Source: a virus (lineage: Duplodnaviria > Caudoviricetes). From it: a stretch of DNA of 64,000 nucleotides. The notes under the pieces were generated by a model, which searched no databases, was not told where the DNA came from, and was given only the letters and a program-made list of their open reading frames with translations. This document shows positions 43,078-61,088 of this stretch, piece after piece (within the stretch, counting starts at the first letter, position 1; each line of letters opens with the position of its first letter). The stretch lies in the IMG/VR virus record IMGVR_UViG_2588253758_000006; one strand, written 5' to 3'. The translations under genes and the position numbers were made by a program.

Positions 43078-44280
43078 GTGTTATGTTAATTTTGATATGG
43101 CGTAAATTATTTTTATCTTTGTGATAAATATAGCCTACAATGATTCGTTACACTATCAAATTATCGGCAGCGGAGGTTGCCGAGCTTCAGACAATAATAA
43201 AAAAGGGAAGCCATAGTGCTCATTCTTTTCGTGTTGCTCATATTTTATTGAGTTGCGACAAGGGAGAATTTTCTGACAATAAAGGGATTACCAATGAGAG
43301 TATTTGTAAGGTTTTGAAGATTGGAGCAAGGACAATCGACAGAGTTAAGAAACGATTTGTCGAAGAAGGCTTTGAGGAGGTACTCGAACGTCGCCCTTCG
43401 GGTCAGCTCTATCAGAAAAAAGTAGATGGTGATTTAGAAGCCAAGATAGTAGCATTGTGTTGTAGCGAACCGCCAGCAGGATTTTCCAAATGGTCTTTGC
43501 GAATGCTTTCTAATAAAGTTGTTGAATTGCAGTATGTTGATTACATTTCACACGTTAGTGTGTCTAATGTATTAAAAAAAACGAACTTAAGCCTTGGAAA
43601 GTAAAGGGGTGGGTGATTCCGCCTGAGCAGAGTGCTAATTTTGTGGCTAATATGGAGCGAGTGTTGGATGTTTATAAGCAGCCCTATAATGAAGAGTATC
43701 CGGTTGTTTGTATGGACGAGTCGCCAAAGCAGCTAATTGAAGAAGTTGCATCAATTCCAATGAAACCGGGGCAGGATGCAAGAGTAGATTATGAATACAT
43801 TAGGCACGGAACGGTAAATATATTCATTGCCAATGAACCCCTTACAGGTAGGAGAATAGTGGATGTTACGGATTTTAAGACAAAAGCAGATTGGGCAAAA
43901 TTCATCAAGAAAATATCTGATGAATATCCCACTGCCAAGAAGATAAAATTGGTTATGGATAACTTCAAAACTCACGATGGTTCTGCTTTTTATGAGATTT
44001 TTCCACCTGAGCAGGCAAAGGAGTTATGGGATAGATTTGAGTTTATTTTAACTCCCAAGCACGGCAGTTGGTTGAATATGGCAGAGATAGAGTTACACGT
44101 GCTCAATGGTCAGTGTTTGAATAGGCATATTCCTACCAAAGAAAAAGTTATCGCTGAGGTAGAAGCGTGGCAAAACCATCGAAATAACGCAAACTTGAAA
44201 ATTAACTGGCAATTTACAAATGAAGATGCAAGAATAAAACTCAAAAAATTATATCCGTCAATTCAAAATTAATATAACAC
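43078..44280 (+). mobile_element. IS630-family element
   Basis: IRs GTGTTATGTTAATTTTGA / GTGTTATATTAATTTTGA; TA duplication within a CTAG target. Confidence 0.92.
43140..44272 (+). CDS. IS630 transposase (two ORFs, -1 frameshift at A8C 43574-43582)
   Basis: HTH ORF plus VCMDE, LVMDN, TPKHGSWLNMAEIE; fusion reads LKKNELKPW. Confidence 0.92.
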
Positions 44281-44781
44281 TAGCTCCATATCCAAAAAAT
44301 CGAGCAAGTACTCCATTGAACCCATTATCTGGAGTTCAAATTCTACTGCATCTTTTGTTTTGAAGTGGTTTCGGAGCAGATTTTTCACTTGCAATCTGAA
44401 ATAGCCTAAACTCCGCAGCCCATCCAGATCGGTTTGCCATTTGTCACTAAACTCTTCGAGCATATGAACACACTCGCATTGCAACTCAATGAACGCTTTG
44501 TAATCACTGATTTTCGTCTCAATGGTTTCAGTTAGTTTGTCTACAAACTGGTCAATGGTCTTTTTTTTTCCATAAAACTTTTGCTGTATTTAATTATTTA
44601 ACTTTTTTGATTCATCGCCCCCATTTTGCTATGAGTCAATGTTATCGAATACAAAGTTAATAAATGAAGCAAAAACAGTAAAATGTTGTTAATGGTTTTT
44701 TTCGTCGTATCTATGAATATTTTGGTAGTGTTGCGAATTAGCTGAATTATGTTTATCTTTGAGGTATAAAACTCGGAGAAA

Positions 44782-45057
44782 ATGAGACACGTAAAAGTAG
44801 TTAGCTGCCCATTTTGCGGTAGCGAAGATTTACAGAAGAATGGACATAGCCCCAATGGCACTCAAAGGTGGAAATGTAAGACTTGCGGGAAGTTTTTTCA
44901 GCTATCTTTTAAGAACAAAGGGCGCCTGCCAGACGTAAAAAGGACGATAATCACAATGATCACCAATGGGAGTGGAATACGTGATACAGCAAGAGTTTTA
45001 GGGATAAGTCCTCACACGGTAATAGGTGAGGTTAAAAAAAACTCCAAGCGAAATTAA
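44782..45057 (+). CDS. insA: IS1 InsA (zinc ribbon + HTH)
   Basis: CPFCGS...QRWKCKTC, GIRDTARVLGIS; A8C frameshift site at 45034-45042. Confidence 0.9.
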   Translation: MRHVKVVSCPFCGSEDLQKNGHSPNGTQRWKCKTCGKFFQLSFKNKGRLPDVKRTIITMITNGSGIRDTARVLGISPHTVIGEVKKNSKRN

Positions 45058-45517
45058 CCCCTATTTATTAGACAAGGTTGAGGCAGGCTTACTCAGGGAG
45101 CTTGATGTTGAAATAGCTTATAATGTTGAAATGGACGAATTTTGGAGTTTTGTAGGCAACAAGAAAAATCGTCGTTGGACTTGGTACGCCATCGACCGCA
45201 GCAGCGGATTAGTAGTAGCTTGGCAGAACGGCAAGCGTGATAACGAAACCTGTAAAAAGTTGCTTGATAAAATGAAATGTTTCCCAATAAATAGGTATTT
45301 TACTGATGATTGGGAGTCTTATTCAAGTCTGTTACCTGCGGGCAAACACGTTATCAGTAAGGCTTACACTTGGAAAATTGAGCGATTGAATTTAACATTT
45401 AGAACGCACCTGAAAAGGCTTTGCCGAAAGACAATTTGTTTCTCAAAAAGCGAGCAAGTGCACGACAAACTGATAGGAATATACATCGAAAACAACCTCT
45501 ACCAAAGAACACCATAA
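45026..45517 (+). CDS. insB: IS1 InsB (DDE domain)
   Basis: EMDEFWSFVG, FTDDWESY, IERLNLTFR, TICFSK motifs. Confidence 0.9.
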   Translation: MRLKKTPSEINPYLLDKVEAGLLRELDVEIAYNVEMDEFWSFVGNKKNRRWTWYAIDRSSGLVVAWQNGKRDNETCKKLLDKMKCFPINRYFTDDWESYSSLLPAGKHVISKAYTWKIERLNLTFRTHLKRLCRKTICFSKSEQVHDKLIGIYIENNLYQRTP

Positions 45518-45675: not shown

Positions 45676-46497
45676 TTACGCAAATTTGACCATATCAGCC
45701 AACTGCACGAAATAGTCATTTGACCAAATTTCTAATGCTTTGCGGTCTTTGATAAACGGCTCTACATCTCGTTTGACTACCTTTATATCTGCCGTGAGTA
45801 GTTTTTCTTTGAGCTGCACCATAAAATCCTCACGGCTCATCTCCACGCCATTGAACTGACGTATTCGCTCTTGCAAATGGTTAAAATCAAGAGCAATACC
45901 CTTTTTTACATACCACTCGAAGTCGTACCAATCACGCCCCTTTATTCGGTTTTTCCACGCTCTGAAAACCAATGCGTGCATCTTACCAGCATAGAGGTCG
46001 GGGAGTGTAAAACATCGTGTCATAAACGAAAATGGATAGAGCAACAGTTTTTGCTCGGTGCTAAATTCGAGAGGAGGATTGACATCCACCTCAATTTTTA
46101 TCTTGATACTCTTTTGGTTCGGCAAGGCGACATCATACGTCTGAGTGTCGTTTTTCAAGAAAGCAGACTCAATGTTTGAGAAGTTTTTTTTATCCTTTTT
46201 GGTTATCTCAACCTGTTTCCCAGCGGCTTTGAACTCCTCGATAATTGCCGGGAAATAATCCTCCAGATAAAAACTCTCGTTATTTGCGACAAGCGAAAAA
46301 TCCAAATCTTCCGAGAAACGCTCCAAAGAGTGAAATATCCTCAAACAGGTGCCGCCATAGAAGGCTGCCTTGTCAAAGAAGCCACCACGATAAAGCCCTG
46401 CCAGCGTAATCTCCTGCATCACTTCGTATGTTGCGTTTTGCAGGTCGTTATCCGTTAGAATCTGATAACGAGACAACATTTGGTCAAATATATTCAT
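45676..46497 (-). CDS. abiEii: AbiEii-family nucleotidyltransferase toxin (type IV TA)
   Basis: FYGGTCLRIFH..RFSEDLDF, KIKIEVD, KGRDWYD motifs. Confidence 0.92.
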   Translation of the reverse strand: MNIFDQMLSRYQILTDNDLQNATYEVMQEITLAGLYRGGFFDKAAFYGGTCLRIFHSLERFSEDLDFSLVANNESFYLEDYFPAIIEEFKAAGKQVEITKKDKKNFSNIESAFLKNDTQTYDVALPNQKSIKIKIEVDVNPPLEFSTEQKLLLYPFSFMTRCFTLPDLYAGKMHALVFRAWKNRIKGRDWYDFEWYVKKGIALDFNHLQERIRQFNGVEMSREDFMVQLKEKLLTADIKVVKRDVEPFIKDRKALEIWSNDYFVQLADMVKFA

Positions 46498-46498
46498 C

Positions 46499-47116
46499 TT
46501 ACAGTAGTTTTAGTAGGTTGTTAATCTCATTTTTCTTTCTGCCATTCTCGGCACACTCTCTCAGTATTTCGACATCCATCTTGTAGAACCCGTCCATATC
46601 TAAACGCAAATCCTCTTCTAAAAACAATCGGAGCGACTTCACAAAACGAGGGCGTAATTTTGGCGTATAGGCAATTAGGTCGCACAACGCTTTTTCGGGC
46701 GATGCCATCAAGAACGAGCATTTATCATTGCTTTCAAGATTAATCCCTGTCGAATAATAATTCGGTTCGCAAAGCGTATAATCAAATCGACCTATTGCGT
46801 TCTCAAAACTTCTGGAACGCTTAGTGGTCATCGACTTTACTACATATACACTTTCGGGAATAAGCCCATAGTAACGCAGGGCACTCTCCATCGAGACATA
46901 AGATGGACCATAGATGTGGTTTGCTATCAGCTCACGTTGCAGCAACTCCCCCGACACTTCGGGCGAGAGCACATAAAGCCCACGTTTGAGACGCAGGATT
47001 TGCCCCTGCTTTTCAAGACTGGCTATCTTATGACGTGGTGCACTGTAATCGGATAAAAACGACTCCAAAACAGCGTAATCCACCGGAATGGCTCCAAGTT
47101 GAGATAAGTTTTTCAT
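46499..47116 (-). CDS. abiEi: AbiEi-family antitoxin
   Basis: LRLKRGLY, PSYVSMESALRYYGLIPE, ASPEKALCD; directly upstream of abiEii. Confidence 0.9.
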   Translation of the reverse strand: MKNLSQLGAIPVDYAVLESFLSDYSAPRHKIASLEKQGQILRLKRGLYVLSPEVSGELLQRELIANHIYGPSYVSMESALRYYGLIPESVYVVKSMTTKRSRSFENAIGRFDYTLCEPNYYSTGINLESNDKCSFLMASPEKALCDLIAYTPKLRPRFVKSLRLFLEEDLRLDMDGFYKMDVEILRECAENGRKKNEINNLLKLL

Positions 47117-47222
47117 ATAATCACTATTTATACTATGCAAATATAGTCATTATTTACATAGTTATTCCGTTTTATCTTCATTTTCTATGCAAATTATGAC
47201 GTTTTTGTTTTAGGATAGCTTT

Positions 47223-47274
47223 TTAGTGCAAGGTGCAGGGCTACATATATATGTAGCCCTGCACCTTGCACTAA
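47223..47274. repeat. Perfect 52-bp palindrome
   Basis: TTAGTGCAAGGTGCAGGGCTACATAT|ATATGTAGCCCTGCACCTTGCACTAA. Confidence 0.95.
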
Positions 47275-47473
47275 GCTCGAAAAGATTATTGCTCTGATAT
47301 TTGGTAGATTGAATTGTAATGATTACTTTTGAACCCAAGAGCTATTTACTCCGCCTTGGACAGAAAGTGGACAAAGAATGACACTAAAAATCGTTACAAA
47401 TTCGTTACAGAACACTCAAAGACGAATGTGTAACATATTGATAATACGTTGGTTGAGGTGCAAGGTTCACAGA

Positions 47474-47486
47474 CCTCTCTCTCCGC
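47474..47486 (+). other. att core, tRNA-Ser 3'-end fragment CCTCTCTCTCCGC
   Basis: CCTC-TCTCTCC-G acceptor pattern; one mismatch to the NBU2 core CCTGTCTCTCCGC as recalled; flanked by the direct repeats TCGTTACA x2 and TACACCAAAA x2. Confidence 0.7.
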
Positions 47487-47582
47487 AAACAACACTGAAA
47501 ATCAGCAAGTTGTATGGGTTACACCAAAATCTACACCAAAAAGTGGATTTTGGTGTTTTCTTTTTGAAGCCCCCGAATGTTT

Positions 47583-48284
47583 TTATTCATAATGTGATCT
47601 ACATCTATGAATTATTCCTTTCCCTTGATTTAGAGAATAAGTGACCCTATCAACATGATTAATTCTTTTAGACGCAACCCCATTTTGATGCCTAAGCACC
47701 TCTGTTTGCCCCAGTCCTCCTGTAAACGGGTTTGCCTTAATGTCATCTATTAATTCAATTACCCTGCTAAGTATTGTTTTATCTGAGTTCTGCCAATATT
47801 CTATATCCTCCAATGCACTCGCCTCGAAAGTATATTCAGTATATAAATTTCTTACACACATCTTAATATGCTGCTTATCTCCGTTTATGAGAGTTTTTTT
47901 ATAAAATACATTCTTAGCTCTCGTGCATAATTCACAATTTGTTATTTGTCTTAGTGGATCAATATCACTTGAAGATGAAAAATCAACACCCATAAATCCA
48001 ACATTTTCCAATGGATAATATTTCTCAAACTCAGTATCGTTTACTATGTCGATTTCGTTAGGAGAGCATTGTTCAATATATTTTAATACGCTGTTCACCT
48101 CCGAATATTCAGCACTTAGAAGTTCAAGATATAATGGATTTAGATATATAGATTCGTGTTTTAGGATAGTATCATATTTGTCATTTTTTGATGATGCGTA
48201 ATTCAATTTTTCCAGTCCATTTTTATATATTGCAAAATCGGCAACTAATAAAGATGTAGTATGCAAAAAATATTTTTTATTCAT
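47583..48284 (-). CDS. Txe/YoeB-domain toxin with ~150-aa N-terminal extension (NsnC position)
   Basis: C-terminal EDIEYWQNSDK...IDDIKANPFTGGLGQTEVL...SKRINHVDRVTY...CRSHYE aligns by eye with YoeB. Confidence 0.85.
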   Translation of the reverse strand: MNKKYFLHTTSLLVADFAIYKNGLEKLNYASSKNDKYDTILKHESIYLNPLYLELLSAEYSEVNSVLKYIEQCSPNEIDIVNDTEFEKYYPLENVGFMGVDFSSSSDIDPLRQITNCELCTRAKNVFYKKTLINGDKQHIKMCVRNLYTEYTFEASALEDIEYWQNSDKTILSRVIELIDDIKANPFTGGLGQTEVLRHQNGVASKRINHVDRVTYSLNQGKGIIHRCRSHYE

Positions 48285-49458
48285 TGTGTCTTAATCTAAA
48301 TAGTTCGGCAAAGTCAATTTGTGTTTGGTCAAAGAAACCTTTTGGCCAATTCGTTAGCTCTCCTTTCTTGGTAATAGATATTTCTTCAATCTTCGGCTGA
48401 GGGAATTCTGAACTTGTATCTCGCTCGCTAAAGTGGTTTATTGAAACAAGTTCATTGTTTATTTTGCCTTGAGCCGTAGCAATTTGGATACCATTAATTA
48501 CGTGATCACTGTGTGTCTCGACAATTACTTTAACCCCTGATTGTGCAATTCTCGCTAAAAATTGCCCGATTCTTGATTGAGCAGAAGGATGTAGATGTGC
48601 TTCAGGATTTTCAACAATCATAATAGTCCCTTTTCTAGCAATTAACCCTGTAACAACAATAGGTAAAACATAACTAATACCGAAACCGATATTTGTTGCT
48701 ATAACTTTTTTTCCATTTGTGTAAGAATTCCCAACCAATATCTGTGCTGTCTGTGTTTGCATATCTTGCCTTGCATCAATGGTTATTCCTGGCATTAAAT
48801 ATTGCATCCAGTCCTGTGTCTGCTTCAATAGCTGTTTGTTTGTATCATTAATATCAAATAATCTTTCATTTTCAACCAATATCTCTGTTTTTAGTTCATT
48901 CTTAAAGCCGTATTCATCGAGAATTTGAGCTGTATATTCACCCTGCCATCCAACATTAGGATAATCGTGAGATTTCACTTTTTGTGCAATGCGTGGTCCT
49001 ATTCTTTCTGCATTTAAGTAATACCATTCCTTTTCAAAAAGCGGTAATGTTCTGTAATCTCCTTGTTGGTTTCTGTTTTTTTCGTCTCCAATCTTAATCC
49101 ACAGTAGTGATCTACTGTCATCTAAAGGATATGATAAACGAAACATATTGTTCTTCTCGACCATTTCAAGTTGAAGCTCGCTTTTCAATCCAACATTAGT
49201 AGGAGTAATATCGTTTGATCTACCTAATGAGAGGCAATAAGAATGATTTAACTCAATGTTTAAGTTGTAATCAATTGATCCTGAATATTTATCAACTAAC
49301 CATTTTGCATTATGCTCAATCGTCGCGCGGAATAATAATAATGCTTGAATTACAGAGCTTTTGCCATAGCCGTTTGCTCCAGCCAATAATGTAAGTCCAT
49401 TAATGTTAATTGATGCATTATAAAAGCATTTAAAATTCTTTATATTAAATTTTATCAT
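48277..49458 (-). CDS. ABC-type ATPase with DUF3696 (Menshen NsnB-like)
   Basis: IKNFKCF, GANGYGKSS, NIGFGISY, IVENPEAHLHP, VETHSDH, WPKGFFDQ. Confidence 0.9.
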   Translation of the reverse strand: MIKFNIKNFKCFYNASININGLTLLAGANGYGKSSVIQALLLFRATIEHNAKWLVDKYSGSIDYNLNIELNHSYCLSLGRSNDITPTNVGLKSELQLEMVEKNNMFRLSYPLDDSRSLLWIKIGDEKNRNQQGDYRTLPLFEKEWYYLNAERIGPRIAQKVKSHDYPNVGWQGEYTAQILDEYGFKNELKTEILVENERLFDINDTNKQLLKQTQDWMQYLMPGITIDARQDMQTQTAQILVGNSYTNGKKVIATNIGFGISYVLPIVVTGLIARKGTIMIVENPEAHLHPSAQSRIGQFLARIAQSGVKVIVETHSDHVINGIQIATAQGKINNELVSINHFSERDTSSEFPQPKIEEISITKKGELTNWPKGFFDQTQIDFAELFRLRHNE

Positions 49459-50819
49459 ATCGATAAATGTTCTTTAATTATATTACTCACTGAATAAAAC
49501 ACATACTCTAGATTGGCTCTACCGTTTGTTCCGTATGATAAATAATACATCAGTTCACTATTCTGTTCTAACTTTTTCACGAAGATAGGAAGAAGATAAT
49601 TCTGTGGATATTTTTGCGTTATTACTTCATATGGAATATCAGCAAGTAGTACTGACCATGCAACAAATAGTGCCTTATTGAAAAGTTGCTTTCTTGTATC
49701 ATCGCCAATATGCTCATTCTTAACCTTTCTGAAAGCATATTTACTATCAAAAAGGTATTCTGCATTTTTCATTGCATTAGTAAATAGTTTTATGACTCTT
49801 TCGTGAGTTACACTATCAATTGTGAAATAAGTTTCTGTCGCATCATCAAGAAAGGCTTCCATATATCCATGGTACGAAGATTTAAGAGTGGAATCTTTCT
49901 TGTATGCATCGTAAAAAATAATAAAACGCAATGCAACTTCCTGATCTTCCATTCTATCGGGCTTGACACTTTTATCAGTAGCAGATTTAAATTCGCTCAA
50001 AGCAGTCATTTCGTTGAGTAAATTTCTAAGGTATCTAGATGCTAGGCAGTTTCGTATTTCTTGATTTTTAAGAGGACGACCACCTGTATTTATACGTCTG
50101 AATATATCGTATTTGACTTTAAAAGGGGAAGCAGGGTCAATAACATTTACAGCAAATTGAGTCATGTTAAACCATCTGTAATATTTAGGATCAATACCCT
50201 TTTGCCCCTTCGATTCGTCTGTTTTGTAATATCGACCCTTAACGCCTTCATCTAAATATTCAAGGTGCTTCAATGGAAATTCATTATTCATAAACTCCTT
50301 TATGGTTGTCAAACGTTGCAAACCATCAACAATAGTCAACCTTCCTTCTGTATCTTCAGCTAAGTAAAACATAGGAAGAGGTATTCTGAGTAATAATGAT
50401 TCAATGAGTTTAGATTTTTGCACGGAATTCCAAACAAAATGACGTTGAAAGTCTGGCGTAAAATCGATGTCCTTATTATCGATCATCTCTTCGATAAATT
50501 TAATGCTAAATTGCTTTTGGTGTACCTTTATTAGCTCTGGGTCATATGGAGTAATCTCAGGCTTTGACTCAAATTCATTATTTTCAATACCTGATTGTTC
50601 ACTTTCAACAATTTGAACAGCAAGCATATCAAGTTTGCCAGACAAGTCAGTCTGCCTGGGATCGATATTCATAAAATCCACAACCTCCAAATGAGAGCCG
50701 ACTAATTTTAATGCCATTTGGATTTTATTCTCACTATCAACCAACTCGTATAAACACTGGTTGTTGTTAATTGGAGTCAAAAAAACATCTTCTCCTGTAT
50801 TTAATTTTAGTTCTATCAT
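49455..50819 (-). CDS. DUF262 ParB-like protein (Menshen NsnA-like)
   Basis: PDFQRHFVW, LIESLLLRIP, IVDGLQRLTT, FRRINTGG motifs. Confidence 0.9.
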   Translation of the reverse strand: MIELKLNTGEDVFLTPINNNQCLYELVDSENKIQMALKLVGSHLEVVDFMNIDPRQTDLSGKLDMLAVQIVESEQSGIENNEFESKPEITPYDPELIKVHQKQFSIKFIEEMIDNKDIDFTPDFQRHFVWNSVQKSKLIESLLLRIPLPMFYLAEDTEGRLTIVDGLQRLTTIKEFMNNEFPLKHLEYLDEGVKGRYYKTDESKGQKGIDPKYYRWFNMTQFAVNVIDPASPFKVKYDIFRRINTGGRPLKNQEIRNCLASRYLRNLLNEMTALSEFKSATDKSVKPDRMEDQEVALRFIIFYDAYKKDSTLKSSYHGYMEAFLDDATETYFTIDSVTHERVIKLFTNAMKNAEYLFDSKYAFRKVKNEHIGDDTRKQLFNKALFVAWSVLLADIPYEVITQKYPQNYLLPIFVKKLEQNSELMYYLSYGTNGRANLEYVFYSVSNIIKEHLSI

Positions 50820-50853
50820 AACGTTCTGAATATTTAATATTACTTTGACTGTT

Positions 50854-53800
50854 TTACTCCATTGGTTTAATCATTGATTCGATGAAGGCGATTTCGTCTT
50901 CGGTTAAGCCGTATTTGGCGTATAGTTGCTTGTCTATCTCTGTTGTTGATTTGCTCCAATCAATGTCTGATTTTTCTGTAAAATCTTGAAGAGGTACAAG
51001 TCGATATGTTTTACTAGTTCCGTGTTGGCTCATTTTTGCTAAACTGTGTAGAAAACGAGCAAACTTAGAACGAAGATACATTGATAGGTTTTGGCTTGAG
51101 ATCTCATCCAACGACAATTCTGCACCAACAACTAAAAAAGTTTCAGTACAAATAGTTCTTGGCTTTCCTACAAAAGAATTCTGATTATCATCGTTTAGTT
51201 CCGTACCAATATTATTAGATTCGGACACATAAACCTTCCATAAATCAATCCATTCTTTATGAGAACGTATTTCTGCTTCATCTACATACCCAATGGAACC
51301 ACCTCTTCCATAACACATCACAGGGTTTGTCAACCCTTCTTCATTCGCTCTAAATTTCTCATCGTTAATAAAGAATGTCCTAAACCCAAAAGCCTTAGCG
51401 GCAGATACGTAGTTCGCTAAGCTTTCATTATTTGAATTCGGATTTACTTTATCCATTATAGAAAGAGCTATCCCGTGCCGAATAAATGTTCCTGCATTTT
51501 CTGTTTTTAAGGAACGCATAATAGAAATAGGTTGCATATTCGATTGATGAGTGATAACCTTTGTTAAAGATTCTCTATTATCATATTTCTCACTCCACAA
51601 GAAAAAGCATAAACCGCCTCTGATGTTGGTATTAGGAAACACATCCTCAGGATTAAGAAAATCGTGAAGCAATGATATATGCTTGTCGTTAAGCATATTT
51701 TCTCTAAACTCGTCTAAACCTTTGCCTCCGGCATACCACCTTGAAGGCATAATCATAGATATATATGATGGTTTGATTTTTTTAGCTATATCAACAAACT
51801 TATCATATATAGGTTTTGCGCTTGCTTGTGCCCCTCCATCCATTACTTGATACGGCGGATTTCCTACGATTGCTTTGAATTTCATATTATTATTTTCGTT
51901 TGCTTTCCAATAAGATTTGCCTTGTGAAACTTTCTCAACAAAGGCAGTTGATTTATTAGTGATTTGGTTGATAAGGTCTTCGAAATACCTCGCATTGACC
52001 TTTGCTTTGCGAAAGCCCACAAGAGTACGTTTGGTGATACTCTTTGCCATAGGGGTTTTGCAAAGTACGAAGATGTTTTCATTCAACACCTTATCCCATA
52101 TCTTCAAATGGTGTTCGAGAGAATCACTTTCTGTTTTGTCGAAAAGGTCGGTTTGCTCGGCAAGTCGAGAACGATAAACAGAGTAGGCGACATAGAGGGG
52201 ATATAAACCCGTTTTAGAGTTGATTTCGAGAATCTTGGTATCAGAACCAAACACCTCGTCAGCAACACCTCCGTTGTCGGCAAAACGAGGCTTTGAAAGA
52301 GTATTCTCATACTTTTCGTCATAGAACACATAACCACCCATACATTCGCCCATATGCATATTGACAACTCGCCTCGGGGTCAACACTGTCTCCTTGTCGG
52401 GATTGCGGAAGGTAGAGAATATGTTTGTTATACGTTCGATACGCTCCTCAATATCGAGCGAGTCGGCAGCCTTTGCCATAGCTCGAATACGTTTACCTGC
52501 TGCACAGAATATTTCTGGGTCGTAGTATTTCTTGAAACTATTAAAAGTTTGCTTATAAACACCCTTTGGCATAAACTCCTCCCACGATTGAGGGTCGATA
52601 AGTTCGGTGAAATTGTCGAGCGTTATGTCGGCTGTCTCGTCTTTAAGTTCGGCTCCATAGATAAGCAGAGGCATACGGATAGAGATGCCACGAAGAATGG
52701 AAACAGCCGTATCACGATTTTTGCGTTTCTTTACCTTATCTTCGAGTAGTTCTTTCTGCTCGTCGGTCAACTCCTTGCCTTTGCGTTTATCTTTCTCAGC
52801 TTGCCCCAACTGCTCGTACTCTTCATCGGCAAAGCCCTGATTGTTCATATCTATATCACCACTCTTAGGCATTGCCTTAGTCGAGCCAATAATCTTTTTT
52901 AGGTTGTCGAACTCTTGCAAATCTACGTCGGTGAGTTTCATCAAATCATCATTGTAGAGATAACCGTCCTCGAATCCATTCTTAACCACTCTCTCAACGT
53001 ATACCTTTTTGAGTTGTTCGAGCATACGAGGAACATCATAATCTCGCATCTGTGAACCATCGACTGCAATGATAGGGCAAAAGTTCAAAAACTCGCCCAT
53101 AATCTTGCGGTCGTCGGTAGAGGTTTTACCTGCTTTTGCCGATATTTTAGCTGTTTCAGCAATAACCTTCAATGTGCGGTCGGGAGCAAAATCGAATACA
53201 AAACACTCTTCCTTGACCTTACCGCCTATAGTTGCAGGGGTTTGAACACGGAAGATAGTCTGCATATAACTTGATGCAGAGGTGTTAAATGAGCCTGAAA
53301 GCATCATCACGGCAGTCCACGGCTTAACAGAGACTCCTGTTGTCAATCGACCACAAGAAAGCGTGATTGTATATGTCTCCTCTGGTTTGTTGCCAATAGC
53401 ATCTTCAACAGCTTTTAGAGCATCAGAGTATGATGCCTCTTCATCGCCATCACCTGCCACGTTGACTATAGTGAAATGTTGGAAAACTGGGTGTTGTTGG
53501 AGCATCGCACTTAACGCACGTGCCTCCTTAACACCCGGAACCATCCACAACGAATGGCGGAAATTATCTCGATAAGCCTCGGTCGAGTATGGATAATTAC
53601 TCTCCTTATCAGATTTTGTAATCAAATTCAGAAATGACAAAACATCGCTTCTATGTATAAAATTACCCGACTCATCGGTGCGGAAAAACTCTCTAAAGTT
53701 GAACGCCAACTCGCTATCAGCGAATTTTTCGATAAGTTTACCAAGATCGTATGTGTAGATATTTAGTCGAGGCAAAGAGGCGTATGGATTTGGATCGCCA

Positions 53801-54849
53801 AAATGAGTCAATGACCACTCCGCCTTCGCACGTTGCTCCATAACGTAGTCCCACGTATATATCTCATCCTCCTTGTATTCGTCAATCAAATTAAAAGGCG
53901 TACCCGACAAACGTAGCACTTTAGTGGTGTCTTTTGTTAGTTCATACATTACAGCCCTACCAAGTTCAGTTTGTGTACCTTCGTGTGCTTCATCGACAAT
54001 GATGAAGTTCCACGGAGTAGCGAAAATTTCATTATTCTTATCGAAGTTGCCTCCCACCTTCTCAGACCCACGCAAATCTTGCATTGACGCAAAATAGACA
54101 TAGTGTTTATCTTCCTTTAAGGCTTGACGCTCCAATGAAGAGTGAGTATCGCCATTGTTCTTTGAACCATAAATGTAGTTAGGGGTATCATAGAATATTT
54201 TGGTAAAATCCTCAAACCAACCAGCATCAACCACTGGACGGTGTGTAAGTATCAAAGTGCGCTTAAACTGCATTTCCTTTGTAACTTGCAGAGCCGACAG
54301 AGTTTTACCAAAACGCATTTTGGCATTCCACAAGAATTGGTTGCCCTTAGTAAAATGCTTTTTAGTGAGTTTGATAGCCTCTTTCTGTTCTGGACGAAAG
54401 TCAATAGGATTTATATCTGTGGATATTTCTGTTGAATTCAACGAGCATCGACCCTCTTTGGCAGCTTTGATAGCATTCTTTACCGTTTCAACGTCTGTTA
54501 AAACCCATTCATTCGCTTTACCTTCAATCTCAAACACCTTTCTCTTGATGCCTGAACGCAATAAAACTTCTCGTACAGCTCCATCATTTAATGCACATAA
54601 CCTACCACCAGCAGTGTATATAGCCAACTCGGTATACAGTAAATCATAAGCAATCCCAGCAGTCTGGGTATATTGATTGATCCGTTTTTTAGCTGCAACA
54701 TTTAGATTGTGACTCGACGGAGCAAGTCCCCATAAATCTTCATTGTCGTCGGCAGTGGCTTCGCCAACTTTCAAACAACCTTTATGAGCCTCGTCATTAA
54801 TACGAAACACATAAATTAGCTTTAGTTTAAATGATGATACAAACTTCAT
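50854..54849 (-). CDS. Nuclease-SF2 helicase-adenine methylase fusion (Eco57I-domain RM enzyme)
   Basis: GIY-YIG-like IYVF..KVGEA N-terminus; AKMRFGKT, DEAH, SGTP; EINSKTG, GNPPY, MPSRW; YGLTEDEIAFIE tail. Confidence 0.88.
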   Translation of the reverse strand: MKFVSSFKLKLIYVFRINDEAHKGCLKVGEATADDNEDLWGLAPSSHNLNVAAKKRINQYTQTAGIAYDLLYTELAIYTAGGRLCALNDGAVREVLLRSGIKRKVFEIEGKANEWVLTDVETVKNAIKAAKEGRCSLNSTEISTDINPIDFRPEQKEAIKLTKKHFTKGNQFLWNAKMRFGKTLSALQVTKEMQFKRTLILTHRPVVDAGWFEDFTKIFYDTPNYIYGSKNNGDTHSSLERQALKEDKHYVYFASMQDLRGSEKVGGNFDKNNEIFATPWNFIIVDEAHEGTQTELGRAVMYELTKDTTKVLRLSGTPFNLIDEYKEDEIYTWDYVMEQRAKAEWSLTHFGDPNPYASLPRLNIYTYDLGKLIEKFADSELAFNFREFFRTDESGNFIHRSDVLSFLNLITKSDKESNYPYSTEAYRDNFRHSLWMVPGVKEARALSAMLQQHPVFQHFTIVNVAGDGDEEASYSDALKAVEDAIGNKPEETYTITLSCGRLTTGVSVKPWTAVMMLSGSFNTSASSYMQTIFRVQTPATIGGKVKEECFVFDFAPDRTLKVIAETAKISAKAGKTSTDDRKIMGEFLNFCPIIAVDGSQMRDYDVPRMLEQLKKVYVERVVKNGFEDGYLYNDDLMKLTDVDLQEFDNLKKIIGSTKAMPKSGDIDMNNQGFADEEYEQLGQAEKDKRKGKELTDEQKELLEDKVKKRKNRDTAVSILRGISIRMPLLIYGAELKDETADITLDNFTELIDPQSWEEFMPKGVYKQTFNSFKKYYDPEIFCAAGKRIRAMAKAADSLDIEERIERITNIFSTFRNPDKETVLTPRRVVNMHMGECMGGYVFYDEKYENTLSKPRFADNGGVADEVFGSDTKILEINSKTGLYPLYVAYSVYRSRLAEQTDLFDKTESDSLEHHLKIWDKVLNENIFVLCKTPMAKSITKRTLVGFRKAKVNARYFEDLINQITNKSTAFVEKVSQGKSYWKANENNNMKFKAIVGNPPYQVMDGGAQASAKPIYDKFVDIAKKIKPSYISMIMPSRWYAGGKGLDEFRENMLNDKHISLLHDFLNPEDVFPNTNIRGGLCFFLWSEKYDNRESLTKVITHQSNMQPISIMRSLKTENAGTFIRHGIALSIMDKVNPNSNNESLANYVSAAKAFGFRTFFINDEKFRANEEGLTNPVMCYGRGGSIGYVDEAEIRSHKEWIDLWKVYVSESNNIGTELNDDNQNSFVGKPRTICTETFLVVGAELSLDEISSQNLSMYLRSKFARFLHSLAKMSQHGTSKTYRLVPLQDFTEKSDIDWSKSTTEIDKQLYAKYGLTEDEIAFIESMIKPME

Positions 54850-54861
54850 ATGCTAGTGGTT

Positions 54862-55860
54862 TTATTTTATCAAATCTATGAAACGGTATTTTCTACCTAA
54901 CTTTTTTGTAATTGGATCTTTAGCTCTCCAATCCTTTACTAAACAATAGACTCCTGTATGATATAAGAATCCATCTTCCTGACATCCTCTGCAAGGTATT
55001 TTAGTAATATCTCCAAACAGAGATGTCTCCTCTATTGTTTTACAACTATTCGGTATAACTCCTTTAAGCCCATCCATCTGCCAAATATTCCACGATACAA
55101 TATAAGCAATGAATTTCAAAGATACCGGCAATGGATCTTTACCAAACTTGTGCTTGTAATAGTCCTTAAAAGTATATAGCAACGCTTCTCGTGCCAATAG
55201 AAGATTGTCTCCCTGATATTCAAAACCATAAATGCTTTTATAGGCTGTTTGTGCCCACTCAAGCCACTCGGTTGATGTTTCCGTATTCTCGCCAACGATA
55301 CGTAGTTTGCGGTCAAGCAGACCGATACGTTGCTCTATTGGAATAGCATCACCAGTTGTAGCATCGTATCTGCTTACTAAATATGGAGCTTCTCCGCACG
55401 AAATTTCCAAGCGATTTTCACGTACATAATCTTTCCATGATTTATCTTCTGGAAAGATTATTGTGTCTGTTACTGATATCCAAGAACGTTTTCCGTCCTC
55501 AGAGGTTAACTCTTTGTTAAATACATTATTGCGACCGAACCACGCTTCGTCTATAAGATTATTCTGTGCGTTACAAATCCACGATGGAGTGAATACTTCT
55601 GCTTTATCTCTTACACGGGATAATTGTTCGGTTTTGTTTTTATCTACTCTTGGTTTAATAATATCACCATTCTTGCCTGTTATCTGAGATACAGTTATCT
55701 CATCAGCCTCTCCATATCCATCTCCCATAAAAGCATAATTATCCGTAGCCCAAATTATATTCTTTTTTGAACTATGGTCTTTAAGTAATATAGGCAAAAG
55801 CTCCTTGTCGTACTTAATTATATCATTCTCTTTTATATCAACGAGGTTTTTTGAAACCAT
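54862..55860 (-). CDS. Partner adenine methylase-like subunit
   Basis: AEVFTPSW, LEISCGEAPY, YGFEYQGDN, NIWQMDGL motifs. Confidence 0.8.
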   Translation of the reverse strand: MVSKNLVDIKENDIIKYDKELLPILLKDHSSKKNIIWATDNYAFMGDGYGEADEITVSQITGKNGDIIKPRVDKNKTEQLSRVRDKAEVFTPSWICNAQNNLIDEAWFGRNNVFNKELTSEDGKRSWISVTDTIIFPEDKSWKDYVRENRLEISCGEAPYLVSRYDATTGDAIPIEQRIGLLDRKLRIVGENTETSTEWLEWAQTAYKSIYGFEYQGDNLLLAREALLYTFKDYYKHKFGKDPLPVSLKFIAYIVSWNIWQMDGLKGVIPNSCKTIEETSLFGDITKIPCRGCQEDGFLYHTGVYCLVKDWRAKDPITKKLGRKYRFIDLIK

Positions 55861-56780: not shown

Positions 56781-57695
56781 TTAAAATCTGATTCCTTTTT
56801 TCTTTTTTCGTTGCATACGCTTGCGGAATGCCTCCTCTTCGGGGTCTGTGCCGTTGGGGAGTATCGGCATATCGAAGAGTGAGCCGATAGAGTCGCCAAC
56901 GGTGCTGCTTTCGTGGTGTTCGGGGCGGTGCTGCGGTTGTTGCACAGGTGGCAAGACCTGTTGCTCCGCTCGGTTGTTCTGCCGTAAGGCGTAGTCGATT
57001 TTGGAGTAGCTGAACTGGCGATCTACCTTTGAGCCATTGAACGAGAGGTTGTTCATCGTAAACCTTACCCCCTCAATTTGGTCGGTTGAGCCTTTGGTTT
57101 TGAAGCCCAACTCTATCCCCTCTGTTCTGAGCCTGCTGCGGAGCTCTTGCCACGATTTCGATTGAGGGACGTGTTTGCAAAGAGCATCATAAATTTGGTA
57201 CTTCGTTGCATCGGGTTCTCGGAGCTGCTCTCGCTTGACGTTCTCTTTTCCACTTGAAACATACAAGCCGTGTTTGATTGTTAGCTCTTTGCAGAGTGCC
57301 GTGCTGCGGAACCGTTCGTTTTGGTCGGAGATGCGTTTGCCGTTAAAGTCGATGCGGTTCATTATTAGGTGGATGTGCGGATGGTCTCGGTCGGTGTGGC
57401 GGACGATTAAGACCTGCGTATTGCCGTAGCCCATCTTTTTCATATACTCATCTGCTATCTCAATCATCTTCGCATTGGTCAGTTTTTCTCTATCCTGTGC
57501 CGAAAAATCGAGAGAGATATGGGCGACAGGCTTAGCAATTTGCACCAGTCGAGCCTGTGTTTCGAAGCTGCGGATTATGGACTCTTTGTCGATATTCCGC
57601 ACTCCTTTTGTGGCGATTATATCGGCTTCTTTGCGATTCAAAACGTAGTTTACAGCATTGCCAAAACTATTTCCTTGTATGATTTTTGCTATCAT
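56781..57695 (-). CDS. MOBP-type relaxase
   Basis: MIAKII.G..F..AVNY, HISLDF, HTDRDHPHIH (3H motif), FNGSKVDRQFSY. Confidence 0.93.
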   Translation of the reverse strand: MIAKIIQGNSFGNAVNYVLNRKEADIIATKGVRNIDKESIIRSFETQARLVQIAKPVAHISLDFSAQDREKLTNAKMIEIADEYMKKMGYGNTQVLIVRHTDRDHPHIHLIMNRIDFNGKRISDQNERFRSTALCKELTIKHGLYVSSGKENVKREQLREPDATKYQIYDALCKHVPQSKSWQELRSRLRTEGIELGFKTKGSTDQIEGVRFTMNNLSFNGSKVDRQFSYSKIDYALRQNNRAEQQVLPPVQQPQHRPEHHESSTVGDSIGSLFDMPILPNGTDPEEEAFRKRMQRKKKKGIRF

Positions 57696-57728
57696 TTTTT
57701 ATTGAATTATTTAATCTGTCGTGTGCGG

Positions 57729-58091
57729 TCACGCACCATTTTCGATGGATTTTATTACGTTATCAATCTCTTTGGCGAGTGTTTCGGACTCGGTTTTCGC
57801 TGCGAAATACCCTGCTTGATTGGCTCGTTTGGCAATCTGATTTAGGTTGTTTGCCATACCTGTGAGCTTGGTTATCAGTTGCAGGTGGGTGGTGGTAAGC
57901 CGCTCTTTGACGGTGGAGTTTCGCAAGGCACTGCGGATGTATTCGCTTATGGTCAGTCCTGCTGTACTCGCATTTCTTAGCAATGCTTTGTACTCAATCA
58001 GCCCCAATTTTATGGAGGCTCGATACTGCCATCGGTCAATCGCCTCTTTCTTAGGGCGACCGTTCTCATTTCTATTTTTTATCGTTTTCAT
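57729..58091 (-). CDS. mobC: MobC relaxosome protein
   Basis: GRPKKE, GLTISEYIR, GMANNLNQIAK motifs. Confidence 0.9.
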   Translation of the reverse strand: MKTIKNRNENGRPKKEAIDRWQYRASIKLGLIEYKALLRNASTAGLTISEYIRSALRNSTVKERLTTTHLQLITKLTGMANNLNQIAKRANQAGYFAAKTESETLAKEIDNVIKSIENGA

Positions 58092-58125
58092 TATCTTGTT
58101 TTTTAGTCAGACCATCGGGATTCAC

Positions 58126-58160
58126 TGTTTCTGTCTGACAGAAACACAAACTTGCTTAGT
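58126..58160. other. Putative oriT
   Basis: IR TGTTTCTGTC-T-GACAGAAACA followed by CAAACTTGC, between DUF3408 and mobC. Confidence 0.65.
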
Positions 58161-58184
58161 AAACTCCCATAAATTACAGTTACC

Positions 58185-58466
58185 CTACTCATCATCATTG
58201 TTTTCTGATTTAGAACCTCCGGTAAATTCGATGTACTGCTCTTCTCTTATCTCCTCCAGCAGCGGTCTGTAAGTCTCGATATGGTGGCGCAGGATGGTGT
58301 CGATTAGAGATGCCGTTGTCACGTGTTGGTCTCGGAATAGGTGGGAGATAATCTTCATCTTCGCGTGGGTCTCGGCACTCACATAAAGCACTTGACGGTC
58401 ACGGATTCTGATGTCTCGGCAAAAAGTCTCGATATATTTCTCTCGTGAAATCTGTTTTGTTTTCAT
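58185..58466 (-). CDS. DUF3408 family protein
   Basis: YIETF...RQVLYVSAETH...SLIDTILRHH pattern. Confidence 0.8.
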   Translation of the reverse strand: MKTKQISREKYIETFCRDIRIRDRQVLYVSAETHAKMKIISHLFRDQHVTTASLIDTILRHHIETYRPLLEEIREEQYIEFTGGSKSENNDDE

Positions 58467-58469
58467 AAC

Positions 58470-59390
58470 TTATATATTTCTTGATTTCGATGTTGGTCTA
58501 TTGTTTGATTTATGGATTGGTGTCCGCATAGATTCCTTTATTGGCTCCAGTGCTGATTTCAGTCTGTGTGCCACTATGTATTCGTTCAGGTCTTTGTGGT
58601 TTCTGTAAAATGGCGATTGGTCGATGGTCTCACGTCCCAACCTTTCAACGGCTGCGAATGCTCGCCTGCCTGATTCGTCATTATCCAAAAAGCAGTGGAT
58701 TGTCTGGTGCTGTTTCAAAAACTCTTCGGCTCGGTGGAGGTTGTGGACGGAGTTCAGCACTGCCATATCCACAGTTGGGCGAATGGCGTTTTTCAAGGTG
58801 AGGTAGGAGAGCATATCCATAAATCCCTCGATGAGCAGACAAGTGGGCGAGCTGCTGCCGATGGTAGTCGGAGATTTGGGTGACGTACTGCCTTTGAAGT
58901 ACTCGTTGCGAAGTTCCCAACCTCCGGCATCGCTCTGAAATCCGATGGCAAAGAATGGTTTGCCGTTTGTGGTGTAGTGAACCTCACGGCAATACTCTCG
59001 TGCGATGTCGAGGTTTATGGAGCGTTTCGACTGGAGATAGTTTATCAGGTGGTGATTCTGTAATGGTTTTACGGACACGATTTGCATAGTTGACTGTACT
59101 GGCTCTGTTGATTCACTACGATGAAATGAAAAGTTGCTGCCGTTTTCGAGTTTGGCAATAGCTTCATTAATGGTGCAGCCGTCGAGCTTCATCACAAGGT
59201 CGATTATAGAACCACCCTCGCCCGAACCGAAATCGTACCACAGGTTTTTATTGTAGTCCACTTTGAAACTCGGAGCAGTTTCGCTGCGGAATGGCGACAC
59301 GTACATTCCATAACCTGTTCGTTCTTGTTTTGGCAAAACTCCCTGCTCGGCAAGGAAGTTTTTGATATTTATATCTTTTACGTTGTACAT
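58470..59390 (-). CDS. Primase (zinc-finger-like + Toprim, PrmN1-like)
   Basis: SPFRSETAPSFKV..WYDFG..GGSIID, IEGFMDMLS, FLDNDESG, KDLNEY. Confidence 0.9.
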   Translation of the reverse strand: MYNVKDINIKNFLAEQGVLPKQERTGYGMYVSPFRSETAPSFKVDYNKNLWYDFGSGEGGSIIDLVMKLDGCTINEAIAKLENGSNFSFHRSESTEPVQSTMQIVSVKPLQNHHLINYLQSKRSINLDIAREYCREVHYTTNGKPFFAIGFQSDAGGWELRNEYFKGSTSPKSPTTIGSSSPTCLLIEGFMDMLSYLTLKNAIRPTVDMAVLNSVHNLHRAEEFLKQHQTIHCFLDNDESGRRAFAAVERLGRETIDQSPFYRNHKDLNEYIVAHRLKSALEPIKESMRTPIHKSNNRPTSKSRNI

Positions 59391-59403
59391 AAGCTGTTTT
59401 TTT

Positions 59404-59533
59404 TGTGAGAATGTGAGAAAATCCCATCAATCTCCTGTGAAATAAAAAGTTAAGTAGCTCACAAACTTCTAACACAATTTCAAAGTGTGAGAATACACCG
59501 TTTGTAAATGTGAGAAAGTGAGTAGAGTGTGAG
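59404..59533. repeat. TGTGAGA iteron-like repeats
   Basis: Copies at 59404, 59412, 59486, 59509, partial copies at 59518 and 59528, inverted copy at 59458. Confidence 0.65.
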
Positions 59534-59586
59534 TTTTTTGTGAAATTAGATATATAATAGATAATCAAAGTATTATATATCACAAT

Positions 59587-60780
59587 CTAACAAACTAACA
59601 GAATTGCATTCAACCGCTCTTTGGTGATGGTGTAGTACCGTCCAGTGGCGGTCTTTCGCTCGGTACTGCCGTCGTTGCGTAGAGCGTAAGTCGAATAGTA
59701 TTGCGATGCTGGCGATGGCTGCAACTCCCAATTGTGTTGCAAAATTCTCCGTAGGTGGGGATGCTCTACCCGAATACCTCTCACCTCCAACATACCCACC
59801 ATATCCACCACACAAAACATCAGTTCCGTGAGCTGCTCGACCTCCATTATCTCGGCAAGGATTTGGAGCATCTCGTTTTCTGCCTTATTGCGGTTGTGGT
59901 TTATCATCTTACGCAAAGCATTGGTAATTAATAGGTCGTGCCGAAACCACATTCGGGACTCTTTGGTAGTGGTGAGCCGACGATGCAACAAGTGCCACAG
60001 CAATGCAGGTAGCTCCTTTTTCATTTCACTGAGAAGGTTGGGGTTATCAGTGGCAAGGGTTGGAATTTTCCGCACCCAGTAGCGTGTCTCGCCCTGCTCG
60101 ATGTAGATGGGGTTCAGTTCGTTGTTGGAGTTCAGAACGAATTTTGCGAAAAACTCTACCTCATTGCGGTCTTTGCCTTTGGCTTCAGATTTATAACTGC
60201 GTGCGGTTGAGAGGTTTTTAATTCGCTCGGAGTCCTCTTTTCTGTCGAGAAGCACTTCATCAACGGCAACTATCAATTTTGTCGCCCAATCAGAATTGAA
60301 CTGACTGCGAAAATCCTCGTTGGTATTGAAGGTCATATTTGCCCCAAAAATCGCTTTGAGCAGATTTAGGAATGTGGTCTTACCTGTATTTTTCTCTTTA
60401 GATACCAATAAGATAATCGGCAGACGTTGGAGCGGTTGCGTATAGAGCAACTGCAAGTAATCAAGCCCCATTTCGTACTGCTCCCCAAAAATATGGCGTA
60501 AAAACGCCTCTATTTTCAGAAGCTGACCTTGCTGCGGTTCAATCTCCACAGGCTCGTAATCATTGAGGAATGTGCCGATGGTGCGTTGGTAGTTGGTGTG
60601 GCTCGGAACGCAACAAAAGCCGTCGTACTTCTCAATCAATGGTTTAATATCTGCTGAGTGGTCTCTCCTGAAAGTTTCATAATTCCATACCACTCGCATT
60701 TCGATAAAATCACCACTCAATAGCGGTTTGCGGACAATCTTATACAAGGTTGTAGCCACTCGGATATATCTATCTTCCAT
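59587..60780 (-). CDS. P-loop primase-helicase family protein (NBU Orf3-like)
   Basis: KNTGKTT Walker A, VAVDEV Walker B, EAKGKD, LNSNNE, TRYWVRK. Confidence 0.85.
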   Translation of the reverse strand: MEDRYIRVATTLYKIVRKPLLSGDFIEMRVVWNYETFRRDHSADIKPLIEKYDGFCCVPSHTNYQRTIGTFLNDYEPVEIEPQQGQLLKIEAFLRHIFGEQYEMGLDYLQLLYTQPLQRLPIILLVSKEKNTGKTTFLNLLKAIFGANMTFNTNEDFRSQFNSDWATKLIVAVDEVLLDRKEDSERIKNLSTARSYKSEAKGKDRNEVEFFAKFVLNSNNELNPIYIEQGETRYWVRKIPTLATDNPNLLSEMKKELPALLWHLLHRRLTTTKESRMWFRHDLLITNALRKMINHNRNKAENEMLQILAEIMEVEQLTELMFCVVDMVGMLEVRGIRVEHPHLRRILQHNWELQPSPASQYYSTYALRNDGSTERKTATGRYYTITKERLNAILLVC

Positions 60781-60782
60781 GT

Positions 60783-61088
60783 CTATCGTCCTCCTGTTTT
60801 ACGCCCTGCAAGCTCCATAGCAAGTTCGGCATCTACGATAATTTTTCGCCCTATTTGCGTGATTGCTTGGTCGATTTTTCCGCTCTTCTTGATTCGGTGG
60901 GCGGTCGGCATACTGCACCCGAATAGCCGGGCGATACCTACTATTCCATAGACGTGTTTTTTAGTGGTGCTATCTATTGCAGGCGTGAGAGCGGTGGCGG
61001 TTGTTGCTCCGGTATTTTGTTGCAGGTATAGAAACTCTTCACCTGTCATTTGCCAAATCGGCTTCTCTTTTAAATGATCAATATTCAT
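60783..61088 (-). CDS. DUF3853 excisionase-like protein (Orf2x-like)
   Basis: PIWQMTGEEF, VYGIVGIARLFGCS..TA.RIKKSG motifs. Confidence 0.9.
   Translation of the reverse strand: MNIDHLKEKPIWQMTGEEFLYLQQNTGATTATALTPAIDSTTKKHVYGIVGIARLFGCSMPTAHRIKKSGKIDQAITQIGRKIIVDAELAMELAGRKTGGR

Follow-up and report, generated by a model that had tools for sequence, protein, structure and literature searches.

What keeps a YoeB-type ribonuclease (RNase) silent when no antitoxin gene lies beside it? The question is raised by three genes at positions 47583-50819 of a 64,000-nucleotide stretch of DNA, IMG/VR record IMGVR_UViG_2588253758_000006, which we refer to as the window; the third of these genes, nsnC (gene 3), encodes a protein that ends in a YoeB/Txe domain. 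We conclude, with a probability of roughly 0.85, that the genes are a Menshen trio, NsnA-NsnB-NsnC, which a mobilisable element within a Bacteroidales genome carries as cargo, beside a restriction-modification (R-M) pair, and which acts by the mechanism proposed below. The genes and the parts of their products are laid out as follows:

49455-50819, minus strand: nsnA, an intact open reading frame (ORF) of 454 amino acids (aa) that encodes a ParB-like DUF262 protein, the proposed DNA sensor
50607-50819, minus strand: N-terminal extension of NsnA, approximately residues 1-71, which precedes the start of the PADLOC NsnA profile match
48277-49458, minus strand: nsnB, an intact ORF of 393 aa that encodes an ABC-type ATPase with a DUF3696 tail
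47583-48284, minus strand: nsnC (gene 3), an intact ORF of 233 aa
47841-48284, minus strand: N-terminal domain of NsnC, residues 1-148, alpha/beta and Rossmann/PIN-like as modelled, the proposed handle for NsnB
47583-47840, minus strand: C-terminal YoeB/Txe RNase domain of NsnC, residues 149-233 plus the stop codon, the putative effector

A first-pass annotation of this DNA had described three coupled, AT-rich genes with overlaps of 4 and 8 nucleotides (nt), and both the ORF coordinates and the GC profile agree with that description. The nsnA and nsnB frames share 4 nt (ATGA), the nsnB and nsnC frames share 8 nt (ATGAATAA), and the GC content is 0.32-0.36 over positions 47000-51500 and 0.40-0.46 in much of the flanking DNA. 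The genes are adjacent and co-directional in the Menshen order A, B, C. The annotation had also equated the DUF262 gene and the DUF3696 ATPase gene with Menshen NsnA and NsnB, and the PADLOC profiles uphold both assignments: NsnA matches PDLC03877 (E 3.9e-106, with residues 72-452 aligned to 18-383 of the 385 profile positions) and NsnB matches PDLC03878 (E 3.9e-108). Within NsnA, residues 109-259 match Pfam GmrSD_N/DUF262 (E 2.6e-27). The hallmarks given for NsnA are a ParB-DUF262 domain with the motifs QRxxxW, DGxQR and FxxxN, followed by a C-terminal ParBDB region (PMC12065111), and all three DUF262 motifs are intact here, as QRHFVW at residue 125, DGLQR at 165 and FRRIN at 240. NsnB matches Pfam AAA_15 and AAA_21, as well as DUF3696 at residues 333-386 (E 5e-12). 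It carries a Walker A motif, GANGYGKS, at residue 27, a Walker B motif, IMIVEN, at 279, in which EN replaces DE, and GFG at 258; the hallmarks given for NsnB are a GxxxxGKS Walker A, an hhhhEN Walker B, a GxG that replaces the SGG of ABC ATPases, and the DUF3696 tail (PMC12065111). Residues E283, N284, G258 and G260 are invariant across 13 NsnB sequences. By sequence comparison, the matches of the three proteins to their families are far beyond chance, and the locus is, on this evidence, an ordinary instance of the known three-gene Menshen anti-phage system.

For gene 3, the proposal had been a RelE-type fold and a YoeB/Txe domain that keeps the equivalents of E. coli YoeB E46, R65, H83 and Y84. 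Residues 153-232 of NsnC match the full length of the Pfam YoeB_toxin model (positions 1-80 of 80; E 2.1e-16; 60.1 bits against a cut-off of 27), and the domain also matches NCBIfam TIGR02116 with 56 bits (cut-off 51.8). When NsnC was compared with E. coli YoeB (2a6q_E) by phmmer (E 2.5e-10), E195, R213, H231 and Y232, as counted from that alignment, were found to align with the four E. coli residues, which bears out their retention. An initial AlphaFold2 model of NsnC, made from a 6-sequence alignment, reached a predicted local distance difference test (pLDDT) score of 63 overall and fell below 50 over residues 1-14, 34-50 and 60-116; a 69-sequence alignment yielded a model with a pLDDT of 96.0 and a predicted template modelling (pTM) score of 0.90, which resolved the N-terminal domain that the 6-sequence model had not. 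The sequence matches and the predicted model together corroborate the RelE-type (YoeB) fold, and NsnC's C-terminal domain is, as modelled, a structurally canonical YoeB with all four catalytic residues.

The proposal that gene 3 is conserved together with the other two genes was likewise confirmed. We scanned one genome per species for the gene 3 family, which returned 106 stretches that matched the pattern, and 13 of these were confirmed by tblastn (L001-L013). At every one of the 13 loci, tblastn places NsnA and then NsnB directly upstream of gene 3. The YoeB-ended ORF begins within about 40 nt of the end of NsnB in related loci, and the nsnB/nsnC overlap in L001, L002 and L003 is 8, 8 and 4 nt, respectively. 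As read from the sequences, all 13 loci retain the catalytic Glu and Arg and 12 retain the His-Tyr pair, the exception being L010, in which the YoeB domain ends in His-Pro. The NsnC-type YoeB domains bear the signature PFTGGxGxTE, and a sequence of the ASKRI type replaces the GFWSRRI stretch that is found in stand-alone YoeB genes.

An NsnB match at E <= 1e-30 is present in 43 of 401 sampled genomes of the same order, and we surveyed the third gene at 30 NsnB loci of that order, 26 of which have an NsnA hit by tblastn. Loci L028 and L029, with no third gene or a stub of 50 aa in its place, and L041-L044, at which NsnA gave no hit, were left out of the survey, such that 24 loci were scanned; within these, L032 is cut by a contig end and L022 was read as an open frame that lacks an in-frame start close to nsnB. 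Three of the 24 third genes at these NsnA and NsnB loci encode YoeB, and many of the 24 match PADLOC NsnC models. These counts substantiate the variable third gene that had been described beside NsnA/NsnB; judged by the domains that were recognised, the third gene varies between loci, with YoeB as a choice that recurs. Some third genes are damaged. The YoeB-type nsnC of L022 (genome G313) has no in-frame start beside nsnB, and at L028 and L029 (G215, G085) we found no third gene and only the 50-aa stub, respectively. The damaged genes at these three loci agree with the sporadic loss of effectors in the literature.

The first-pass annotation had also pointed to an unexplained N-terminal domain of about 150 aa. 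The domain is present, and its predicted model, which is of high confidence, is an alpha/beta fold of the Rossmann/PIN-like kind, but it is no longer unexplained, because it is homologous to the N-terminal domains of NsnC proteins. A HMMER search of 1.84 billion representatives with NsnC residues 1-150 returned 20 proteins at E <= 0.001, most of them 228-267 aa in length. Matches of the same residues by phmmer include P0013 (E 5.4e-10) and P0016 (E 2.4e-6), which in turn match the PADLOC NsnC models PDLC03897 (E 4.3e-36) and PDLC03912 (E 4.7e-46), respectively, each over a span that covers the N-terminal domain. Relatives that combine this N-terminal domain with other C-terminal domains and are called NsnC by PADLOC comprise P0016 and P0062 for PDLC03912, and P0013 and P0058 for PDLC03897. 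YoeB forms the C-terminus in 14 of 24 aligned relatives within the N-terminal domain family, and the remainder end in other domains that have no Pfam match. The YoeB domain follows a different N-terminal domain, of about 200 aa, in L004-L013, and YoeB-ended third genes that have this longer domain (L031, L022, L004) match the NsnC model PDLC03895 through it. Because relatives of either half match PADLOC NsnC models, both halves of gene 3 occur in recognised NsnC proteins. Taken together, these alignments identify the N-terminal domain of gene 3 as an NsnC N-terminal domain, homologous to those of the proteins that PADLOC calls NsnC.

The absence of a nearby YefM/Phd antitoxin gene, from which our question arises, was verified and extends to the whole genome. 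There is no Phd/YefM-type ORF near nsnC, and a search of the 3.15-Mb single-contig genome (99.96% complete) for the Phd/YefM antitoxin family PF02604 gave 0 matches at E <= 0.001. The nsnC gene is also the sole match to PF06769 (YoeB) in that genome. YoeB matches occur in 153 of the 401 genomes of the order, and the listed ones are mostly stand-alone frames of 84-108 aa that have far higher scores. We built a tree from 84 alignment columns with the 12 best-scoring stand-alone YoeB genes of the same order and 15 NsnC-type YoeB domains (L007 was omitted as a duplicate of L006), and the two groups split with a support of 100/99. By this phylogeny, the NsnC-type YoeB domains are a lineage of their own.

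How such a protein might be controlled has been considered by Li, Tan, Basu, Corbett and Zhang (Nucleic Acids Research, 2025; PMC12065111), who analysed 1997 Menshen loci. In their account, NsnC always consists of an N-terminal inPIN (inactive-PIN) domain and one of 15 effector families. The inPIN domains fall into 35 defined families, with 81 sequences left ungrouped, and the effector repertoire includes BECR RNases, Toprim, PLD and others; BECR RNases account for nine of these 15 families, and YoeB is named among them (PMC12065111). AlphaFold 3 models of NsnB4-NsnC2 in that work place inPIN between two DUF3696 tails, an arrangement that the authors liken to the control or release of nucleases by the ATPases of Septu and PARIS, and NsnA is not predicted to enter the NsnB-NsnC complex (PMC12065111). 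The introduction of the same paper states that the Menshen system of Solibacillus silvestris protects against T2, T4, T6 and Fado, as validated by Millman et al. 2022. According to a 2025 preprint, the proteins of Menshen assemble into higher-order complexes, the stoichiometry of which is unresolved (10.1101/2025.07.10.664194). A further Menshen effector is described in a 2026 preprint on BECR RNases, which also calls the inactivity of the PIN domain into question (10.64898/2026.08.28.747851). The first-pass annotation had left room for a new type of effector; this did not hold, since YoeB is already catalogued among the BECR families of NsnC, and both the architecture of an N-terminal domain joined to YoeB and the hypothesis for its control are known since 2025 (PMC12065111). 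As a discovery, the locus is of small significance, because the Menshen system, this class of effector and the control proposed for it all appeared in print in 2025.

For the locus in the window, we propose that NsnA would sense incoming phage DNA and that NsnB, probably as a tetramer, would grip the N-terminal domain of NsnC between its paired DUF3696 tails, which would keep NsnC silent and put NsnB in the place of an antitoxin. Upon infection, the binding or hydrolysis of ATP would free NsnC or switch it on, and the YoeB domain would then cleave mRNA, with the A site of the ribosome as the likeliest place, such that translation and, with it, phage growth would stop. The first-pass annotation had pictured an ATPase/ParB-like pair that holds the RNase through its N-terminal domain, with control similar to that in PARIS. 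Where this picture concerns the ATPase, it is supported, in that it matches the hypothesis published from the AlphaFold 3 models of NsnB4-NsnC2; where it includes the ParB-like protein, it goes beyond what is in print because the published models leave NsnA outside the complex (PMC12065111).

Several points weigh against a Menshen trio that acts in this way. Gene 3 matches 0 families of PADLOC 2.0.0 at E <= 0.01 and no NsnC model, and its close relatives P0004, P0006 and P0010 likewise match no PADLOC NsnC model. The check proposed earlier, whether an existing NsnC profile covers the gene, accordingly gave a mixed result: gene 3 itself has no match, and each of its halves is found in proteins that do match NsnC profiles. 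The missing match reflects the limits of the models of 2023 and not those of the Menshen definition. Because NsnC-type domains replace GFWSRRI, their handling of substrate may differ from that of stand-alone YoeB. The fusion of a 148-aa N-terminal domain to YoeB might also hinder entry into the ribosomal A site, which E. coli YoeB binds as a small dimer. Furthermore, we infer the binding of NsnB to NsnC, the toxicity of NsnC, the protection from phage and the dependence on ribosomes at this locus on the basis of Li et al. 2025 (PMC12065111) and the established behaviour of YoeB, and a literature search, which covered some sources in part, returned no experimental mechanism for any Menshen system.

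With these points in mind, a more specific form of the proposal, in which a YoeB-type NsnC with a short N-terminal domain is a true A-site mRNA interferase that an ABC ATPase, in place of an antitoxin, silences and that a ParB-like DNA sensor releases, is one that we hold tentatively and at clearly less than even odds. If true, it would show directly, for the first time, how a Menshen system kills, and toxins of the RelE family would have a second way, besides CARF-RelE, of being wired into immunity. Because the chemistry of YoeB and its catalytic mutants are well understood, a YoeB-type NsnC is a convenient test case for the unproven Menshen mechanism. There is also a practical consequence: because gene 3 is unmatched by the NsnC models, a standard PADLOC run may omit the third gene, and automated defence annotation may call loci of this YoeB-type NsnC subfamily, which PADLOC 2.0.0 does not recognise, incomplete.

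The main competitor to cleavage in the A site keeps the Menshen system and changes the task of the N-terminal domain, which would bind particular (phage) RNAs so that YoeB could cut them directly without the ribosome. In the published analysis, inPIN domains are predicted to be RNA-binding modules for target recognition (PMC12065111), although this RNA binding is a prediction only, for all families, and the AlphaFold 3 models from the same source give the domain another job, namely docking to the DUF3696 tails of NsnB. The N-terminal domains are highly variable while YoeB is kept, as would be expected under arms-race pressure, and the NsnC-type YoeB differs from stand-alone YoeB in the GFWSRRI region; however, the catalytic set that is kept is that of ribosome-dependent YoeB. 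We consider direct cutting of bound RNAs doubtful. That the N-terminal domain is itself an active PIN nuclease, which would make NsnC a dual nuclease, was argued for BECR-Tox2-bearing Menshen proteins in the 2026 preprint (10.64898/2026.08.28.747851). Among 69 relatives, eight columns of the domain are acidic in at least 60% (for instance, 66 of the 69 at D38 and 51 at position 101), and NsnC is acidic at seven of the eight. Because these residues are only partly conserved, with none of the eight columns invariant and Thr at position 10, behind strand 1, of NsnC, an active PIN nuclease is very unlikely. A self-contained toxin-antitoxin fusion, in which the N-terminal domain would act as the antitoxin and gene 3 would be unrelated in function to the genes upstream, was rejected as extremely improbable on the grounds of gene linkage and the fold of the domain. 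Gene 3 lies behind NsnA and NsnB at 13 of 13 loci and overlaps nsnB, its N-terminal domain is alpha/beta with no sequence match to Phd/YefM, and the same domain carries unrelated C-terminal domains; these observations stand against a genome that contains no match to a separate antitoxin and a pTM of 0.90, which suggests a fixed packing of the two domains.

The remaining alternative concerns the extent of the system, because the Menshen genes run in the same direction as two genes directly upstream of them, which form the R-M pair:

54862-55860, minus strand: type II methyltransferase of 332 aa (PADLOC MTase_II, E 2.2e-118; no Pfam hit)
50854-54849, minus strand: helicase/Eco57I-type methylase of 1331 aa (Pfam ResIII and Eco57I; PADLOC MTase_II and REase_MTase_IIG, E 1.9e-113)

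The five co-directional genes could constitute one system, in which Menshen would guard the R-M enzyme or be triggered by it. The intergenic gaps are just 12 nt, between the methyltransferase and the helicase-methylase, and 34 nt, between the helicase-methylase and nsnA, and 27.9% of Menshen operons adjoin BREX, R-M systems or methylases (PMC12065111). A homologue of the 1331-aa protein also lies upstream at the closest related locus, L001, where it is 53% identical, but this is the only one of the 13 loci with such a large enzyme, and L002 and L003 share the NsnA and NsnC type without it. Moreover, the introduction of PMC12065111 presents the S. silvestris Menshen system as protective alone. 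A single five-gene system is therefore very improbable, and we treat the 1331-aa enzyme as a neighbour rather than a part of Menshen because only L001 among the 13 loci has a large enzyme there.

Taken as a Menshen trio, the locus can be compared with the archetype and with other systems that employ related parts. It shares with the Menshen archetype its gene order, the DUF262 motifs of NsnA, the EN Walker B, GxG and DUF3696 tail of NsnB, an NsnC that joins an N-terminal regulatory domain to a C-terminal RNase of the BECR superfamily, and a neighbourhood of methylase or R-M genes. It differs in that the archetypal NsnC combines inPIN11 with PB-BECR1 (YafQ-like, with an H-R-H triad), whereas NsnC here has a shorter N-terminal domain and YoeB, and further in the approximately 70 extra N-terminal residues of NsnA and in a gene 3 that the NsnC models of PADLOC 2.0.0 miss. 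In YefM-YoeB and Axe-Txe, the toxin is accompanied by an antitoxin of the kind for which the present genome has no Phd/YefM match; NsnC is a two-domain protein of 233 aa in contrast to stand-alone frames of about 84-108 aa, its YoeB belongs to a separate lineage with PFTGGxGxTE, and its proposed control is by an ABC ATPase. Cami1, the CARF-RelE fusion of type III CRISPR-Cas, is reported to demonstrate ribosomal action by a fusion of this kind; the present locus differs from it in that there is no CARF domain and no signalling by cyclic oligoadenylate, and NsnC is presumably regulated through contact with NsnB. PARIS (AriA/AriB) and Septu (PtuA/PtuB) likewise use an ABC ATPase of the OLD/AAA_15 kind that is thought to hold a nuclease and to release or activate it on infection, but their nucleases are TOPRIM or HNH enzymes, whereas that of the window is an RNase of the RelE superfamily and is accompanied by a ParB-like third protein. 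NsnB also matches the PADLOC model for AriA (E 8.5e-31), far more weakly than it matches NsnB (E 3.9e-108), and no PADLOC model, that of AriB (TOPRIM, DUF4435) included, matches gene 3; membership in PARIS was ruled out on these results.

The N-terminal extension of NsnA is common only to L001-L003 among the 13 loci, and in tblastn the other 10 align only from residue 66-91 onward. An Atlas feature search with the extension gave scores of 0.80-0.86, all below the trusted level, and returned nothing usable. Possibly the extension is an additional sensor domain, in which case the locus would be a 'Type II' Menshen.

The remaining features near the operon are as follows:

47533-47556, minus strand: terminator-like hairpin with a 9-pair stem, lying 27 nt downstream of the stop codon of nsnC, found by consensus scan only
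45676-47140, minus strand: complete AbiEi/AbiEii pair (PADLOC AbiEi, E 2.4e-75; AbiEii, E 8.2e-115), the genes of which nearly abut
56781-61088, minus strand: mobilisation/replication set, comprising a MobA/VirD2 relaxase, a NikA/MobC-like protein, a CHC2-Toprim primase, DUF5906 and DUF3853

A scan for promoters returned 36 sites against 32.4 expected and was uninformative; it used the sigma-70 consensus, whereas promoters of another type are expected in Bacteroidota. With regard to expression, a look-up of sequencing runs listed no RNA run that contains this DNA, and the listed shares stayed at or below 0.14 of the words sampled. Given the mobilisation/replication set, a mobilisable element appears to carry the defence genes as cargo. 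The AbiEi/AbiEii pair, which follows the Menshen operon directly on its downstream side, represents a further module of defence or of the toxin-antitoxin kind within this island. At 62318-63706, the minus strand encodes a protein of 462 aa that contains Schlafen AlbA_2, HATPase_c_4 and winged helix-turn-helix domains and has weak matches to pAgo-associated PADLOC models (E 5e-19). Transposase-like ORFs of 219, 91 and 163 aa occupy the plus strand at 43613-45517, with the AbiE pair on one side and the more leftward genes on the other, and they suggest insertion sequences at the edge of the island.

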